Source of the DNA: a virus
Taxonomy: Duplodnaviria; Heunggongvirae; Uroviricota; Caudoviricetes
Virus record (IMG/VR): IMGVR_UViG_2744054628_000007
Reading direction: 5' to 3' (one strand)
Length of the DNA stretch: 4,879 nt
This document shows, in pieces, positions 1,917 through 4,810 of the stretch; positions within the stretch are counted from its first letter, which is position 1; the number at the start of each line of letters is the position of its first letter. Below the pieces are notes generated by a model. The model saw only the letters and a program-made list of their open reading frames with translations. It searched no databases and was not told the origin of the DNA. The position numbers and the translations under genes were made by a program.

Positions 1917-2708
1917 ATGAGCGAGAAATTAAAGATAGTCTATCGCCCATTACAAGAATTGTCACCGTATGCGCACAACGCCAGGACGCACAGTACTGAG
2001 CAGGTGGCACAACTGGTAGAAAGTATTAAGCAATTCGGCTGGACTAATCCGGTGCTGATTGACGAAAAGGGCGAAATTATTGCGGGTCACGGTCGTGTTA
2101 TGGCGGCTGAAATGCTCAAAATGGATTCTGTTCCGGTCATTGTTCTGTCTGGCCTGACGGATGAGCAGAAAAAGGCGTACCGCCTGGCAGATAATCGCCT
2201 GCCGATGAATGCTGGCTGGGATGAAGATCTGTTGCGGATGGAGCTGTCGGACCTAATCAATGCTGATTTTGATGTCTCCCTGACAGGCTTCATCCCGACA
2301 GAAATTGATGAACTGTTGACGGATGTTTTGCCCGGTACAGGAAATGAGGAGGAGCCGTATACGACGAAAATTGATACGCCTGTTTATGAGCCGTCGGGCG
2401 GTAAACCGGATATCAGTGAACTGTACGACGATACGAAAACTCAGGAGCTGATCAGCCGGATACGTTCGGCGTCCCTTGAGCCTGATATTGAGAAATTCCT
2501 CCTGTGTGCGGCAGAACGTCACACGGTGTTTAATTTCAGCAGAATTGCGGACTATTACGCTCACGCCCCCTCTGAAATTCAGTGTTTTTTCGAGGAGTCG
2601 GCGCTGGTGATCATTGATTATCAGCAGGCTATTGAAAATGGATTTGTCCGGATGACGCAGCGCATGGTGGAGATCATGCATGGTGGTGAGGAGGAGGAAT
2701 ATGCGTGA
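1917..2708 (+). CDS. ParB/sulfiredoxin-like (ParB N-terminal domain) protein with an acidic C-terminal extension
   Basis: 263-aa ORF. The N-terminal ~100 aa (…YRPLQELSPYAHNARTHSTEQVAQLVESIKQFGWTNPVLIDEKGEIIAGHGRVMAAEMLKMDSVPVIVL…) has the ParB/Srx layout: a conserved N-x-R region followed by a G-x-x-R motif (GHGR) before AA. The ~160-aa C-terminal part is acidic and has no motif I recognise. SD-like AAGG sits 4 nt upstream of ATG 1917. By position (immediately after trkG) it corresponds to ynaK of K-12 Rac, but I am recalling that gene order, not its sequence or length. Confidence 0.75.
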   Translation: MSEKLKIVYRPLQELSPYAHNARTHSTEQVAQLVESIKQFGWTNPVLIDEKGEIIAGHGRVMAAEMLKMDSVPVIVLSGLTDEQKKAYRLADNRLPMNAGWDEDLLRMELSDLINADFDVSLTGFIPTEIDELLTDVLPGTGNEEEPYTTKIDTPVYEPSGGKPDISELYDDTKTQELISRIRSASLEPDIEKFLLCAAERHTVFNFSRIADYYAHAPSEIQCFFEESALVIIDYQQAIENGFVRMTQRMVEIMHGGEEEEYA

Positions 2709-3633
2709 TGATTTTTGCGCCTTTATTCTGACTCACGGGCGACCGGACAAAGTTCTGACTTACCGGACGTTGCGTCGTGCTGGCTATACCGGGAAAATTT
2801 TTATCGTTGTTGATGATGAAGATAAGACACGGCATCAGTACATGGCTGAATTTGGTGAACAGGTGCTGGTGTTTTCCAAAGCCGATATCGCCAGTCGTTT
2901 TGACGAAGCCGATAATTTCTGTGACCGCCGCTCAATTTTTTACGCCCGTAATGCCTGTTTCGACCTGGCAAAACTGGTCGGGTGTAAATACTTCATTCAG
3001 CTCGATGATGATTATCACGAGTTCCAGTTTCGGGTGGATCGCAACTATGACCAGGCCTATTTTCCGATAAGGAAACTGGATGCGATCCTTTCTGAAATGC
3101 TGGCGTACTACGAATCAATACCTGCTCTTTCCATCGCTATGTCGCAGGGCGGGGATTTTCTTGGTGACAATGGCGGCCATGCTTCGTGGGTGAAACGCAA
3201 GGCAATGAACAGCTTTATCTGTTCGGTTGATCGACCGTTCTCATTCATGGGGCGCATTAACGAGGATGTGAATACGTACACGAATCTCGGTCGCTGTGGT
3301 GAATTGTTTATGACGATCGGTGCTGTCCAGTTAGGGCAGAAACAGACGCAGAAAAACAGCGGCGGAATGACCGAGCTGTATCTGGATTCCGGAACCTACG
3401 TTAAAAGTTTTTACTCCGTCATGTATGCGCCGTCGTGCGTAAAAATCTCACTGATGGGTGCCAGCCATAAACGCATTCACCATCAGGTCACCTGGAACAA
3501 CGCTGCAGTAAAAATCCTTCACGAAAAATACAGGAAGAAGACACCCTGCATATCAATGGGGGTGACAAATGATTCCGTATTCGAAAGTCGAGTCTCTGGC
3601 AGCGTGCCGGATGACTGCACAACAAATCGCTGA
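2701..3633 (+). CDS. Hypothetical protein with glycosyltransferase GT-A-like motifs, translationally coupled to the upstream ParB-like gene
   Basis: I prefer ATG 2701 (MRDDFCAFILTHGRPD…, 310 aa) over the track's 2680 start, because a strong SD (GAGGAGGAGGA, 2688-2698) precedes it and it overlaps the upstream stop (ATGCGTGA, 2701-2708). Motif order resembles the GT-A nucleotide-sugar transferase fold: hydrophobic strand FCAFILTHGRPD, second strand with acidic tail IFIVVDDED, and a DxD-like YFIQLDDDY near residue 100. No hydrophobic TM stretch. Function is unverified. Confidence 0.6.
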   Translation: MRDDFCAFILTHGRPDKVLTYRTLRRAGYTGKIFIVVDDEDKTRHQYMAEFGEQVLVFSKADIASRFDEADNFCDRRSIFYARNACFDLAKLVGCKYFIQLDDDYHEFQFRVDRNYDQAYFPIRKLDAILSEMLAYYESIPALSIAMSQGGDFLGDNGGHASWVKRKAMNSFICSVDRPFSFMGRINEDVNTYTNLGRCGELFMTIGAVQLGQKQTQKNSGGMTELYLDSGTYVKSFYSVMYAPSCVKISLMGASHKRIHHQVTWNNAAVKILHEKYRKKTPCISMGVTNDSVFESRVSGSVPDDCTTNR

Positions 3634-3820
3634 CGTTCTGGATGTTGATCTGAACCGACTGAAAGAAAATCGGGAAGCAATGACAGATTTTTATGCGGCC
3701 ATCCGTAAGGGCAGAGCGAAAGGTGAAGCCGAGTTACGAGCGGCATTGTTTAAGCTTGCCAGAAAAGGGGATGCCTTTGCTCTGCGCGAACTACTCAGGG
3801 TGGATAAAAATCAGGACTAA
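3569..3820 (+). CDS. Small helix-turn-helix protein (83 aa), possibly a terminase small-subunit-like DNA-binding protein
   Basis: Strong RBS (GGGGGTGA at 3558-3565, 4 nt spacer) before ATG 3569. The segment MTAQQIADVLDVDLNRL is HTH-like, reminiscent of the N-terminal DNA-binding region of small terminases such as lambda Nu1, followed by a basic helical tail. It overlaps the 3' end of the upstream gene by 65 nt; an alternative in-frame ATG at 3611 would shorten the overlap to 23 nt. Stop TAA at 3818-3820, 3 nt before the next ATG. Confidence 0.55.
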   Translation: MIPYSKVESLAACRMTAQQIADVLDVDLNRLKENREAMTDFYAAIRKGRAKGEAELRAALFKLARKGDAFALRELLRVDKNQD

Positions 3821-3823
3821 CTG

Positions 3824-4810
3824 ATGAGCAGACCGGACTGGGGGGCGTTGCAGCAGGAGTATATTGCTGAATACACCCGCTCCGGTATATCTCCGGTGGC
3901 ATGGTGTGAAGCAAGGGGACTGAATTACGCAACAGCCCGTCGTTACATCAAAAAAACTCCGAAAAATGCGCAGACAGAAATGTGCAAAACTGCGCAAAAA
4001 AGTGCGCAGAAAAAATCTGCGCAGACTGCACAAAAGCGGAACGAAAAATCTCAGGAAAAAAAGCCAGTATTCGATGCGGGCCTGAATGAGGGCGACGCGG
4101 AGGAATTTTCGTTCTGTCCCGATGAATTCGGCATTTCTGACCAGCAGGCTAAGTTTGCGATGCTTGTTGCTCAGGGTAAAAAGCCGACATGCAAGGGGAT
4201 TTGGGAGCATCCAGGTATAAATCAGGGATATTTTGCGCCAACGTATCCCCAAATTCGCGATATTTTTTACCCTACAGTGGAAGAAGTTGCTGCTGACTGG
4301 GGATTGAACGTAAAAATTAATGAGGGAAATAAAGAGGTTCACTTTTATTACGGACGCCAGTATCGGGGAACCACTATCTGCAGATCGATGGAGAAGCCAC
4401 AAACGATCGTCGGTTTCAAAATTGGTAATGCGTTGGTGGATGAACTGGACATTTTGCCGAAGGAAAAAGCCAGAACGGCGTGGCGCAAGATAATTGCACG
4501 TATGCGTTATAAGATTGATGGACTTCGCAACGGTATTGACGTTACAACCACGCCGGAAGGATTCAAATTTGTCTACGAGCAGTTTGTTAAAGCCGTGCGT
4601 GAAAAAACAGAGCTGGCCTCACTGTATGGTCTGGTGCAGGCATCTACTTTCGATAATGAAAAGAACCTGCCAGCAGATTACATTCCTTCGCTTCTTGAAT
4701 CATACCCTCCAGAGCTGATTAAAGCCTATCTTCGAGGACAGTTTACTAACCTGACAAGTGGTACTGTTTACCTGATCTTACCCAGCAATAGTGGACACGC
4801 GGCTAAGTGA
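3824..4810 (+). CDS. Phage protein with N-terminal terminase-small-subunit-like HTH, a low-complexity AQK-rich linker and a ~250-aa uncharacterised C-terminal domain
   Basis: 328-aa ORF. The N-terminus WGALQQEYIAEYTRSGISPVAWCEARGLNYATARRYI follows the pattern of TerS DNA-binding domains (compare SPP1 G1P-like …EY…AA…AGYS…A). Residues ~45-80 (KNAQTEMCKTAQKSAQKKSAQTAQKRNEKSQEKK) are low complexity. It is tightly linked to the upstream gene (TAA-CTG-ATG). I cannot assign the C-terminal domain. Confidence 0.55.
   Translation: MSRPDWGALQQEYIAEYTRSGISPVAWCEARGLNYATARRYIKKTPKNAQTEMCKTAQKSAQKKSAQTAQKRNEKSQEKKPVFDAGLNEGDAEEFSFCPDEFGISDQQAKFAMLVAQGKKPTCKGIWEHPGINQGYFAPTYPQIRDIFYPTVEEVAADWGLNVKINEGNKEVHFYYGRQYRGTTICRSMEKPQTIVGFKIGNALVDELDILPKEKARTAWRKIIARMRYKIDGLRNGIDVTTTPEGFKFVYEQFVKAVREKTELASLYGLVQASTFDNEKNLPADYIPSLLESYPPELIKAYLRGQFTNLTSGTVYLILPSNSGHAAK
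3967..4032. repeat. Cluster of six palindromic TGCGCA-like hexamers at 9-15 bp spacing
   Basis: TGCGCA at 3967, 3991, 4003 and 4018; TGTGCA at 3981; TGCACA at 4027. Each lies in an A-rich context (…AAAAATGCGCAGA…). The cluster sits inside the 328-aa CDS, encoding its AQK-rich linker. Confidence 0.6.

Follow-up and report, generated by a model that had tools for sequence, protein, structure and literature searches.

What does a soluble glycosyltransferase modify when it is encoded by a phage, in a region with no membrane or lipopolysaccharide context? This question is raised by a gene at positions 2701–3633 of a 4,879-nt stretch of viral DNA (the window; every feature given below lies on its + strand), for which the original prediction, made from the sequence alone, had proposed a GT-A-like protein acting on a soluble substrate such as DNA, a nucleotide or a protein. 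Phage DNA glycosylation is a main counter-measure to restriction and CRISPR and a source of 5hmC-mapping enzymes, and to our knowledge it has so far always been tied to a hydroxymethyl-pyrimidine precursor. A solitary TAGT gene has been reported in 288 of 753 phages, its function being left open (PMC13216743), and about 65% of GT contigs have no neighbouring base-modification enzyme (bioRxiv 10.1101/2023.12.21.572611). The window puts one such orphan TAGT into the best available genetic system, E. coli Rac.

The Rac locus and its transferase gene

The window is the late region of the Rac prophage, in keeping with the phage setting assumed at the outset; it is 100% identical to E. coli AF44, and 789 genomes contain at least 80% of it. 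The gene order is lysis genes, trkG, a ParB/Srx gene, the TAGT gene, terminase remnants and IS3; the neighbour trkG encodes an unrelated K+ transporter. Judged from profile matches and a structural model, the gene at 2701–3633 is one for a soluble GT-A glycosyltransferase of the known phage TAGT family. Its 310-aa product, named 'GREB1-related protein' in RefSeq, matches Pfam TAGT (PF20691) with an E value of 3.8e-35 and 122.1 bits against a cutoff of 27.5, and PHROG 842 with an E value of 6.9e-104. The open frame spans 2680 to 3633, and the Pfam match covers residues 15–229 of the 317-aa ORF. A start at 2680 was discarded because family N-termini and the ribosome-binding site point to ATG 2701, which is also the RefSeq start (L001 22701–23633, WP_001204028.1) and common to the family (alignment A1). 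The family has 1,321 cluster representatives at E ≤ 1e-3, and family statistics exclude a DxD arising by chance.

An AlphaFold model of the product contains an N-terminal Rossmann-like α/β/α nucleotide-binding core, in which the β1, β2 and β4 motif blocks have pLDDT values of 93–98; the C-terminal half is modelled at 35–60. A structural match was found in BFVD to a T4-like homologue from Klebsiella phage PKO111 (E 7e-6). The TAGT profile had no match among PDB sequences, and neither NCBIfam nor PADLOC, including the defence and anti-defence models of the latter, holds a model matching the transferase. No transmembrane segments were found (highest Kyte-Doolittle 19-residue mean 1.08; GRAVY −0.34) and there are no Gtr-type neighbours, so that the predicted lack of hydrophobic segments and of a membrane or LPS context holds, just as the GT-A layout is borne out by the two profile matches and the fold.

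The motif series on which that layout had been based (FCAFILTHG, RPD, IFIVVDDED, YFIQLDDDY) is present and conserved throughout when counted from ATG 2701, with FCAFIL forming β1 (residues 5–10), IFIVVDD β2 (32–38) and YFIQLD β4 (97–102). R14 (codon 2740–2742, part of THGRPD) supplies the 'R' of R...DDD...ED, the signature of phage DNA GT-A enzymes; it does not vary in alignments A1 and A5, and its conservation in A2, the 40–52%-identity alignment, is 90% or more. The acidic cluster D38-D39-E40-D41 (2812–2823) ends β2 at what is a nucleotide-contacting position in GT-A enzymes; D38 and D41 are invariant in A1 and strand 32–38 has a pLDDT of about 95, and D38 is less than 90% conserved in the 40–52%-identity set. 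The DxD motif D102-D103-D104-Y105 (3004–3015) stands at the end of β4, close to residue 100 as had been proposed. All four residues are invariant in A1 and A5, the strand at 97–102 is modelled at 93–97, and in A2 D102 and D104 are invariant with D103 and Y105 at least 90% conserved. In the predicted structure the acidic motifs thus end core strands, β2 and β4, of the GT-A fold. The 'ED' motif N187-E188-D189-V190 (3259–3270), a candidate catalytic base region, is invariant in A1 and lies in a region modelled at low confidence; its counterpart in phage GT-A enzymes and JGT is EDY/F, whose third position is taken here by V190, with Y193 nearby. The full R...DDD...ED signature described for phage DNA GT-A enzymes and JGT (bioRxiv 10.1101/2023.12.21.572611) is therefore present, with R14, D102–104 and E188-D189 all invariant. 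Outside the family core, only the Rac copy carries a C-terminal tail of about 28 residues (3547–3630; pLDDT below 50), which overlaps the next CDS at 3611–3820; all other family members end near residue 282–290 in A1.

A constant partner with a swappable N-terminus

Directly upstream, at 1917–2708, lies a gene for a 263-aa protein (pI 4.5) with a ParB/Srx NTP-binding domain (NBD), a linker and a conserved C-terminal domain. How regularly the two genes occur together was assessed in three independent sets, each of about 77 loci: one drawn from diverse viral contigs, one from contigs selected via the partner, and one from genomes that each represent a species, the last scanned with a profile from a 9-sequence alignment. 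The pairing is essentially universal. A partner ORF was present in all 76 assessable viral loci (73 abutting upstream or fused, 1 abutting downstream, 2 one gene apart); starting from the partner, the TAGT was adjacent in 70 of 77 contigs and within 0.9 kb in 5 more; and 75 of the 77 TAGT loci in species-representative genomes had the partner. Further instances of the pair come from Lactobacillus, Nocardia and haloarchaeal viruses. Partner and TAGT are fused into a single ORF at one locus (L156), and partner-TAGT-partner-TAGT units are found at L112, L113 and L119; together with the translational coupling described below, this fusion and these duplicated cognate pairs are consistent with a predicted partner-dependent activity.

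The partner matches Pfam ParB_N (E 9e-7), with no HTH or other Pfam domain, and PHROG 620 (E 1e-90), and it can be aligned to Spo0J/ParB, its GHGR box standing opposite the GERR of Spo0J. Residues 10–144 (1944–2348), comprising the NBD and a helical linker, form the cassette of phage ParB-DNA methyltransferase fusions, matching positions 13–151 of 436 in PADLOC MTase_II (E 1.5e-38) and positions 31–171 of 633 in PHROG 498 'DNA methyltransferase' (E 8.8e-51). The linear motif Y148-T-T-K...P-V-Y-E-P159 that follows (2358–2393; consensus Y[TS]xK..PxYEP) is conserved and predicted to be disordered, with a pLDDT of 41–53 in the monomer model. In alignment A3 both tyrosines and the glutamate are invariant and the lysine and both prolines at least 90% conserved; P155 and P159 are invariant only in A4. 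A helical C-terminal domain at residues ~165–255 (2409–2681) is the constant companion of the TAGT, and what stays constant in the partner across loci is a helical, so far unannotated C-terminal domain of about 105 aa, for which we found no Pfam family and no structural neighbour.

The N-terminus of the partner, by contrast with this constant part, alternates between the ParB NTP-binding module and a short QxxLF leader. The NBD is absent from 18 of 76 partners in the viral sample, about a quarter; a module that only some three quarters of partners have is not essential to the chemistry. Qxx[LMI]F occurs in the leader of 65 of the 90 stand-alone partners in the database set, against 1.2 expected, and by motif match this leader resembles a clamp-binding motif (consensus from PMC12309361). 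A dnaN-like gene adjoins the pair at 10 loci, all 10 of which have the short, NBD-less form of the partner. What is new here is this genomic context, namely a constant adaptor with an undescribed domain and a swappable N-terminus.

Across loci the replication module lies on one side of the pair and the packaging module on the other; about 59 viral loci have terminase downstream. Neighbours or fusions suited to glycan tailoring comprise extra TAGTs, in tandem arrays of 2 to 5 copies, a sugar epimerase, a methyltransferase and a sulfotransferase. In six related loci genes for NAD-dependent sugar epimerases/dehydratases lie directly downstream, which hints that the donor may be a nucleotide-hexose. 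Radical-SAM proteins weakly similar to viperins adjoin the pair in 11 loci.

Predicted expression of the pair in Rac

The two Rac genes appear to be translationally coupled, as read from the sequence at 2688–2708: a Shine-Dalgarno GAGGAGGAGGA sits within the last codons of the partner gene, and ATG 2701 overlaps its stop codon (ATGCGTGA). An overlap of a few bases between partner and TAGT is also seen in phi jlb1, HHTV-2 and metagenome loci. A terminator-like hairpin (1866–1889; 10-bp stem with 7 GC pairs and a T-rich tail) lies after trkG and upstream of the partner gene, and no promoter-like site was found before the pair. This arrangement fits trkG as an inserted moron and transcription of the pair as part of a Q-dependent late transcript, the antiterminator Q being located at L001 17221–17763.

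The pair precedes the packaging module, which is marked by terminase remnants at 3824–4771, where the N-terminus of TerS is joined to an internal fragment of TerL (RefSeq pseudogenes with matches to PHROG 51, residues 1–122, PHROG 2 and Terminase_6N); phage vB_EcoS-683R6 has the pair-terminase arrangement intact. As the Rac terminase is internally deleted and cut by IS3, with tail genes truncated as well, this prophage cannot package, and the intact pair has no virion DNA to modify in this strain.

Search for an acceptor-making enzyme

Canonical DNA offers no ordinary hydroxyl acceptor, and all characterised TAGT-type enzymes that we know of require a hydroxymethyl group or a sugar already on the DNA. 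No acceptor is evident for the pair; hmC and hmU are not known from E. coli, lactobacilli or haloarchaea. The Rac annotation and its hypothetical ORFs contained no TET/JBP, 2OG-oxygenase, dCMP/dUMP hydroxymethylase or α/β-GT. The complete 31.8-kb phage c5, which carries the pair, likewise contained no TET/JBP, oxygenase, hydroxymethylase or α/β-GT, its largest unassigned ORF being 208 aa, and among the neighbour families seen at 4 or more of 90 loci there was no TET/JBP, oxygenase or hydroxymethylase. Nor was a C5-methyltransferase or thymidylate-synthase-type gene linked to the pair in Rac, c5 or the recurrent neighbours. The TET/JBP search consisted of Pfam scans of cluster representatives, Rac ORFs and phage c5 ORFs, a narrower set than all ORFs at the 240 loci, and would miss rare or distant oxygenases at more than 8 kb. 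Literature searches combining ParB with glycosyltransferase, the PHROG name with prophage, and Rac with glycosyltransferase returned no experimental work on the pair, and we found no report of modified DNA in any pair-carrying phage in the literature searched.

Possible roles of the pair

The explanation we favour for these observations is that the gene encodes an adaptor-tethered, late-expressed DNA glycosyltransferase that depends on a metal and a nucleotide-sugar donor, a reading to which we assign a probability of roughly 55%. The TAGT enzyme and the upstream gene product would act as a two-protein unit, in which the C-terminal domain and the Y[TS]xK..PxYEP peptide of the partner bind, and probably activate, the transferase, and the ParB/Srx NTP-binding module anchors the complex to duplex DNA; its substitute in relatives, the QxxLF leader, would dock on the β sliding clamp. 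The pair would be transcribed with the late genes just before terminase, so that replicated phage DNA is glycosylated ahead of packaging and may be shielded from the nucleases it meets in a new host. We infer the DNA acceptor, the need for the partner and the late timing. A link to DNA is suggested by the NBD and linker cassette in common with ParB-DNA methyltransferase fusions, by the QxxLF leader and by the dnaN-like neighbours. Precedents exist as well: HTH-less ParB-like proteins of phages, built from an NBD and a C-terminal domain, activate their cognate thymine dioxygenases, and do so specifically on dsDNA (PMC13229309), and the T4 α-GT co-purifies with the gp45 clamp (PMC13216743). Against a DNA acceptor stand the lack of an evident acceptor group and the absence of the NBD from about a quarter of partners. 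Given that the ParB-like partner is constant and no acceptor-making enzyme was found in the scanned sets, phage DNA is probably glycosylated by another route. We tentatively suggest, as a possibility that we ourselves regard as doubtful, that the pair may be a self-sufficient system attaching sugar straight to a canonical DNA component that carries no hydroxymethyl group, such as an exocyclic base amine, while being delivered along the duplex by a swappable clamp module (ParB-CTPase or β-clamp docking).

The main alternative, in our view an unlikely one, is that the enzyme is a protein O-glycosyltransferase. The acceptor would then be the partner itself at Y[TS]xK..PxYEP, in a self-priming likened to that of glycogenin, or another DNA-bound phage or host protein, and the ParB or clamp-binding module would only position the glycoprotein on DNA. 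The pair's occurrence without a linked acceptor-generating enzyme in the scanned sets is consistent with this, as is the strictly conserved Tyr/Ser-Thr segment of the partner, predicted to be disordered; a conserved disordered peptide is equally expected of a docking or activation element, however. The 2 to 5 tandem TAGTs and the fused methyl- and sulfotransferases would suit a glycan built on a primer, and the duplicated units, in which each TAGT has its own cognate partner, would fit an enzyme-substrate pair, but the exchange of ParB NBD for clamp-like leader is easier to see as DNA scanning than as glycoprotein display, and the N-terminal cassette of the partner is one common to DNA methyltransferases. 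Relatives point both ways: GREB1 O-GlcNAcylates a protein, which counts against the DNA reading (PMC7968844), whereas the phage family members tested so far all act on DNA (PMC13216743; bioRxiv 10.1101/2023.12.21.572611).

The state of the prophage raises the improbable prospect of a leftover without present role, an intact ORF in a decaying, packaging-dead element, which would be compatible with the other readings. The internally deleted, IS3-cut terminase, the truncated tail genes and the atypical 28-residue Rac tail that overlaps the next ORF point in this direction; yet hundreds of E. coli genomes carry the ORF and its partner intact and at 99–100% conservation, comparison with a 94%-identical orthologue gives a dN/dS of 0.07, and all catalytic motifs are intact. 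We give very little credence to a small-molecule role, anti-defence or metabolic, in which the enzyme would glycosylate or hydrolyse a nucleotide, a nucleotide-sugar or a defence signal with the ParB/Srx domain as an NTP-binding cofactor module. The ParB/Srx fold does occur in enzymes that do not act on DNA, among them sulfiredoxin and SerK, and binds ATP, GTP or CTP (PMC12704722), and the viperin-like radical-SAM neighbours could be read in the same sense, but a module missing from a quarter of partners is dispensable, the clamp-like gene association and methyltransferase cassette point to DNA, and no PADLOC defence or anti-defence model matches the transferase. Least probable of all, in our estimation, is the classical TAGT role, the transfer of sugar onto 5-hydroxymethyl-cytosine or -uracil, or onto its sugar, with the base made elsewhere in phage or host. 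The Pfam and PHROG families held in common with T6 ggt and the R...DDD...ED signature, as in 5hmC-acting phage GT-A enzymes and JGT, favour it, but no hydroxymethyl-base maker was seen in Rac, phage c5 or the recurrent neighbours at 90 loci, and neither hmC nor hmU is known from the hosts named above. Genes for ParB, GT and terminase are each often found next to phage 5mYOX genes, which speaks for the classical role; the GT-linked dioxygenases of the same study form a ParB-independent clade, which argues against it (PMC13229309).

Whichever acceptor proves correct, the outcome would amend the misleading automatic name 'beta-glucosyl-HMC-alpha-glucosyltransferase' that is spreading in phage annotations. 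If DNA is the target, the pair would add a second example, beside the thymine dioxygenases, of DNA-modifying enzymes licensed by ParB-type proteins, possibly with a new base modification; if a protein is, it would be a new phage glycoprotein system. Direct glycosylation of canonical DNA, if true, would represent a new modification chemistry, one present among temperate phages across most bacterial phyla and in those of haloarchaea.

Comparison with known systems

The TAGT family (TET/JBP-associated glycosyltransferases) was reportedly defined computationally by Iyer et al. in 2013, and its enzymes have been tested on 5hmC by the NEB group. The Rac protein resembles the family in its PF20691 score, GT-A fold, R...DDD...ED signature, phage origin and solubility, and the Rac gene differs in having no linked TET/JBP (5mYOX) gene in the scanned sets and in having a partner that bears the C-terminal domain. 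The ggt (β-glucosyl-HMC-α-glucosyltransferase) of T2 and T6 falls into the same PHROG 842 and the same Pfam family (T6 ggt, whose biochemistry is established: PF20691 E 1e-8, above cutoff; PHROG 842 E 5e-78). Their kinship with the Rac protein is indicated by these shared profiles and the BFVD structural match; T6 ggt is absent among tblastn matches at 1e-5, and the Rac subfamily profile against the single T6 ggt sequence gives an hhalign probability of 0.3, which is not significant. T6 ggt lies beside a dCMP hydroxymethylase and an α-GT, which provide the α-glucosyl-hmC that it requires as acceptor (PMC13216743); since both of these neighbours are absent from Rac, its PHROG name should not be transferred as a function.

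GtrB, in the GtrA/GtrB/GtrC systems, is likewise a prophage-encoded GT-A (GT2) transferase; it acts at the membrane, with undecaprenyl phosphate as its substrate and the membrane proteins GtrA and GtrC as its partners. A Gtr-like O-antigen role was discarded for the Rac enzyme, which has no transmembrane segments and has ParB/Srx and terminase genes as neighbours. The NCBI name of the Rac protein, 'GREB1-related', points to another group, as the GREB1 GT domain, JGT and phage TAGTs have been treated as relatives (PMC7968844), and JGT shares the R...DDD...ED signature. JGT needs JBP-made hmU, and neither JGT nor GREB1 has a ParB-type partner; GREB1 is a 1,949-aa multidomain cytoplasmic protein that acts on ER-alpha and combines a Zn-binding domain, an inactive helicase-like domain and a C-terminal GT (PMC7968844), whereas the Rac protein is a single domain of 310 aa.

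Closer in arrangement is 5mYOX176/ParB176 (PNAS 2026, PMC13229309), where a ParB-like protein with an NBD and a C-terminal domain, again HTH-less, is encoded beside a DNA-modifying enzyme; such pairs are cognate-specific and often near terminase genes (PMC13229309). There the enzyme is a dioxygenase rather than a glycosyltransferase, and in the Rac type the constant element is the C-terminal domain, with an NBD that a QxxLF leader can replace. The ParB-fused DNA methyltransferases (PHROG 498, MTase_II) have the same N-terminal NBD and linker cassette as the Rac partner; surveyed in PMC12704722, they are prophage-enriched and typically located upstream of terminase. In those fusions the effector is covalently attached, whereas Rac has an adaptor domain and a separate, translationally coupled glycosyltransferase.

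Family membership of the Rac glycosyltransferase

The TAGT ("TET-associated glycosyltransferase") family was reportedly defined computationally in 2013. The original prediction of a soluble GT-A-like transferase, read from motif order, described something real, and its assignment was right: the gene at 2701–3633 (+ strand) encodes a conserved GT-A/TAGT enzyme with R14, DDD102–104 and E188–D189. This signature, R...DDD...ED(Y/F), is common to 5hmC-tested phage GT-A enzymes and the trypanosome base-J glucosyltransferase (bioRxiv 10.1101/2023.12.21.572611). As first stated, the finding is a member of a family already named by Pfam, PHROGs and NCBI. The T2/T6 enzyme that adds a second glucose to alpha-glucosyl-hmC also belongs to it (PMC13216743), and T6 ggt scores above the Pfam TAGT cutoff and falls within PHROG 842; direct profile-to-sequence comparison of the Rac subfamily with T6 ggt gave no significant match. 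The PHROG-derived label "beta-glucosyl-HMC-alpha-glucosyltransferase" should not be taken as the function of the Rac protein. Elsewhere among family representatives, TAGT is fused to a class I SAM methyltransferase, a sulfotransferase (PF03567) or an unassigned ~180-aa N-terminal domain (P0128, P0130, P0163, P0166, P0165; P0151, P0186, P0198; contig L097, 7455–8846).

Prophage setting and transcription

The window is 100% identical to the Rac prophage late region of E. coli isolate AF44, and at least 80% of it was found in 789 of 5,426 complete E. coli genomes. RefSeq gives the order lysis cassette, trkG, "ParB/Srx family N-terminal domain-containing protein" (the partner, 1917–2708), "GREB1-related protein" (the TAGT gene, 2701–3633), a 69-aa hypothetical, two terminase pseudogenes (3824–4189 and 4190–4771) and IS3 from about 4838. 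In vB_EcoS-683R6, a Rac-like phage that is more complete, the genes come in the identical order and lead into intact TerS, TerL, portal and coat genes, so the window shows an otherwise normal module from near the packaging genes in a defective copy. Its packaging enzyme is destroyed by internal deletion and IS insertion: a chimeric 328-aa ORF (3824–4810) joins residues matching TerS families (1–122) to an internal part of TerL (126–316), the intact counterpart lying at 10124–12500 in vB_EcoS-683R6 (L172). In that phage, the gene after the portal (13893–15005), in the usual position of a MuF-like head protein, is annotated "NAD+--asparagine ADP-ribosyltransferase". The Rac TAGT ends in a 28-residue tail (3547–3630) missing in all other family members, overlapped by a 69–83-aa ORF (3569/3611–3820) partially matching TerS PHROG 309 (positions 145–218); the end of the glycosyltransferase gene seems to coincide exactly with a mosaic junction. 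On the opposite strand of this Rac copy (L001, 11977–14289), two hypotheticals (108 and 332 aa; no Pfam match) beside a frameshifted abortive-infection gene (AbiH) and hokD may form a small defence island.

Between the lysis cassette and the pair sits trkG, a TrkH-family K+ transporter gene (304–1779, RefSeq start 322; Pfam E 5e-145) with a GC content of 33–40% versus 47–50% in the flanking phage genes, which has the look of a typical moron acquired from a foreign source. Given the strong terminator-like hairpin 3' of trkG (1866–1889) and the lack of a promoter-like site before the pair, transcription fits read-through from a late promoter that depends on Q, an antiterminator encoded upstream.

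An obligatory, translationally coupled partner

The enzyme is accompanied by an obligatory partner to which it is translationally coupled: the TAGT ATG at 2701 overlaps the partner stop codon (ATGCGTGA), and the last Glu codons of the partner gene form a Shine-Dalgarno sequence (GAGGAGGAGGA). This overlapping order recurs in Lactobacillus phage phi jlb1, haloarchaeal virus HHTV-2, metagenomic contigs and Nocardia phage NTR1, whose unannotated first ORF matches the partner HMM; terminase genes are usually next. Among 80 diverse viral contigs taken with a 40–52%-identity TAGT alignment, 76 had enough upstream DNA and every one carried a partner ORF (73 abutting upstream or fused, one abutting downstream, two separated by one radical-SAM gene). 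When 77 viral contigs were selected through the partner C-terminal domain, TAGT was adjacent in 70 and at ≤0.9 kb in five more. Sampling one genome per species gave a partner at 75 of 77 assessable TAGT loci, in Firmicutes, Bacteroidota, Proteobacteria, Chlorobi, Verrucomicrobia, Planctomycetes, a Saccharibacteria MAG and an archaeon. The partner–TAGT subfamily is spread widely among temperate phages, both bacterial and archaeal.

Module variants include two to five tandem TAGTs after a single partner, a single fused ORF (L156), and duplicated short partner–TAGT units (L112/L113, 6443–8843; L119, 6403–8843); since the two partners in the latter are unlike each other, these units argue for cognate partner–enzyme specificity. 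In one viral contig (L105, 4676–11221), a dnaN-like clamp gene and then a short partner precede five successive TAGT paralogues, which suggests a multi-sugar glycan or several specificities. In the cos phage c5 of Lactobacillus (L174, 1–1713), partner and TAGT are ORF1 and ORF2 and start 90 bp from the annotated cos end, so that the packaged genome opens with them, ahead of terminase.

The partner N-terminus is modular, being either common to DNA methyltransferases or similar to a clamp-binding motif. In Rac, the ParB/Srx module aligns to Spo0J/ParB, including the GxxR (GHGR) and D/E-N boxes, and residues 10–144 (ParB/Srx plus helical linker) are the head cassette of ParB-fused phage DNA methyltransferases (PADLOC MTase_II, E 1.5e-38; PHROG 498, E 8.8e-51), fusions that are enriched among prophages (PMC12704722). 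Stand-alone partners, which lack this module, open with a conserved MKQxx[LM]FG leader; Qxx[LMI]F occurs in 65/90 versus 1.2 expected from shuffled leaders, a figure that reflects conservation rather than 65 independent events because the sequences are related. Qxx[LMI]F is the consensus sequence for binding to the bacterial beta clamp (PMC12309361), and the short form was present at all 10 loci where a dnaN-like gene abuts the module.

Genomic neighbours

For 90 loci, every ORF lying no more than 8 kb away was clustered, and the recurrent clusters were scanned. The pair lies between replication and packaging genes; recurrent neighbours were terminases, TerS, portal/MuF, scaffold, PolA, primase, DnaC-like, SSB, RecA and dnaN-like clamp, with an NAD-dependent sugar epimerase/dehydratase in six loci. 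No linked hydroxymethylation was seen: TET/JBP, 2OG-oxygenase and thymidylate-synthase-like families were absent from these recurrent clusters, a set that rare or distant genes could escape. A radical-SAM protein occurred in 11 loci, either between partner and TAGT (L133, 7011–7970; L143, 936–1904) or directly 3' of TAGT, where a ~319-aa protein is encoded in nine of the 80 diverse viral loci (L114, 8855–9814; L118, L134, L136, L139, L142, L148, L151, L154). It falls below every NCBIfam cutoff and is only weakly similar to viperins and MoaA; a role in producing or modifying the acceptor or the sugar is conceivable. One pair-carrying phage contig (L010, 17837–20316; identical to L011, 8659–11138) has four successive small GT2-family glycosyltransferase genes after the capsid gene; these might form a glycosylation system of their own, with the capsid as a possible target.

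Proposed role and alternatives

We favour DNA glycosylation by the pair, with a probability of roughly 55%. Replicated phage DNA would be glycosylated late, ahead of packaging; late expression is a feature of the Mom DNA modification of phage Mu. The partner C-terminal domain would dock onto and activate the transferase, while the N-terminal module might hold the complex on DNA as a ParB-type NTP-gated clamp or via the beta clamp. In phages, ParB-like proteins without an HTH are activators of their cognate thymine dioxygenases, an effect specific to dsDNA and to the pair (PMC13229309), and the gp45 clamp co-purifies with T4 alpha-glucosyltransferase (PMC13216743).

The acceptor is the weak point of this proposal, as canonical DNA has no ordinary hydroxyl and either new chemistry or an acceptor other than DNA is implied. 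The main rival is that a protein is glycosylated, possibly the partner itself at its invariant Tyr/Ser-Thr peptide; this agrees with GREB1, an animal relative that O-GlcNAcylates a protein (PMC7968844), and we consider it unlikely. A classical hmC/hmU role would involve an unlinked hydroxylase. No oxygenase or hydroxymethylase is annotated by RefSeq anywhere in the Rac prophage, ten of its hypothetical/DUF proteins gave no such Pfam match, and the complete 31.8-kb genome of phage c5 yielded no acceptor-making candidate (largest unassigned ORF 208 aa, no Pfam match); we rate this role the least probable. Action on a small molecule is very improbable as well. There is also a slim chance, compatible with any of these readings, that the pair has no present role in this decayed prophage.

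Many phage TAGT/GT-A genes lie without a nearby hydroxymethylation pathway, their role left undefined (PMC13216743; bioRxiv 10.1101/2023.12.21.572611), and we found no experimental test of the partner–TAGT subfamily in the literature searched. We read the Rac subfamily as a probable variation on phage DNA glycosyltransferases that depends on an adaptor but not on a hydroxylase, and whose partner contains a domain not described before.
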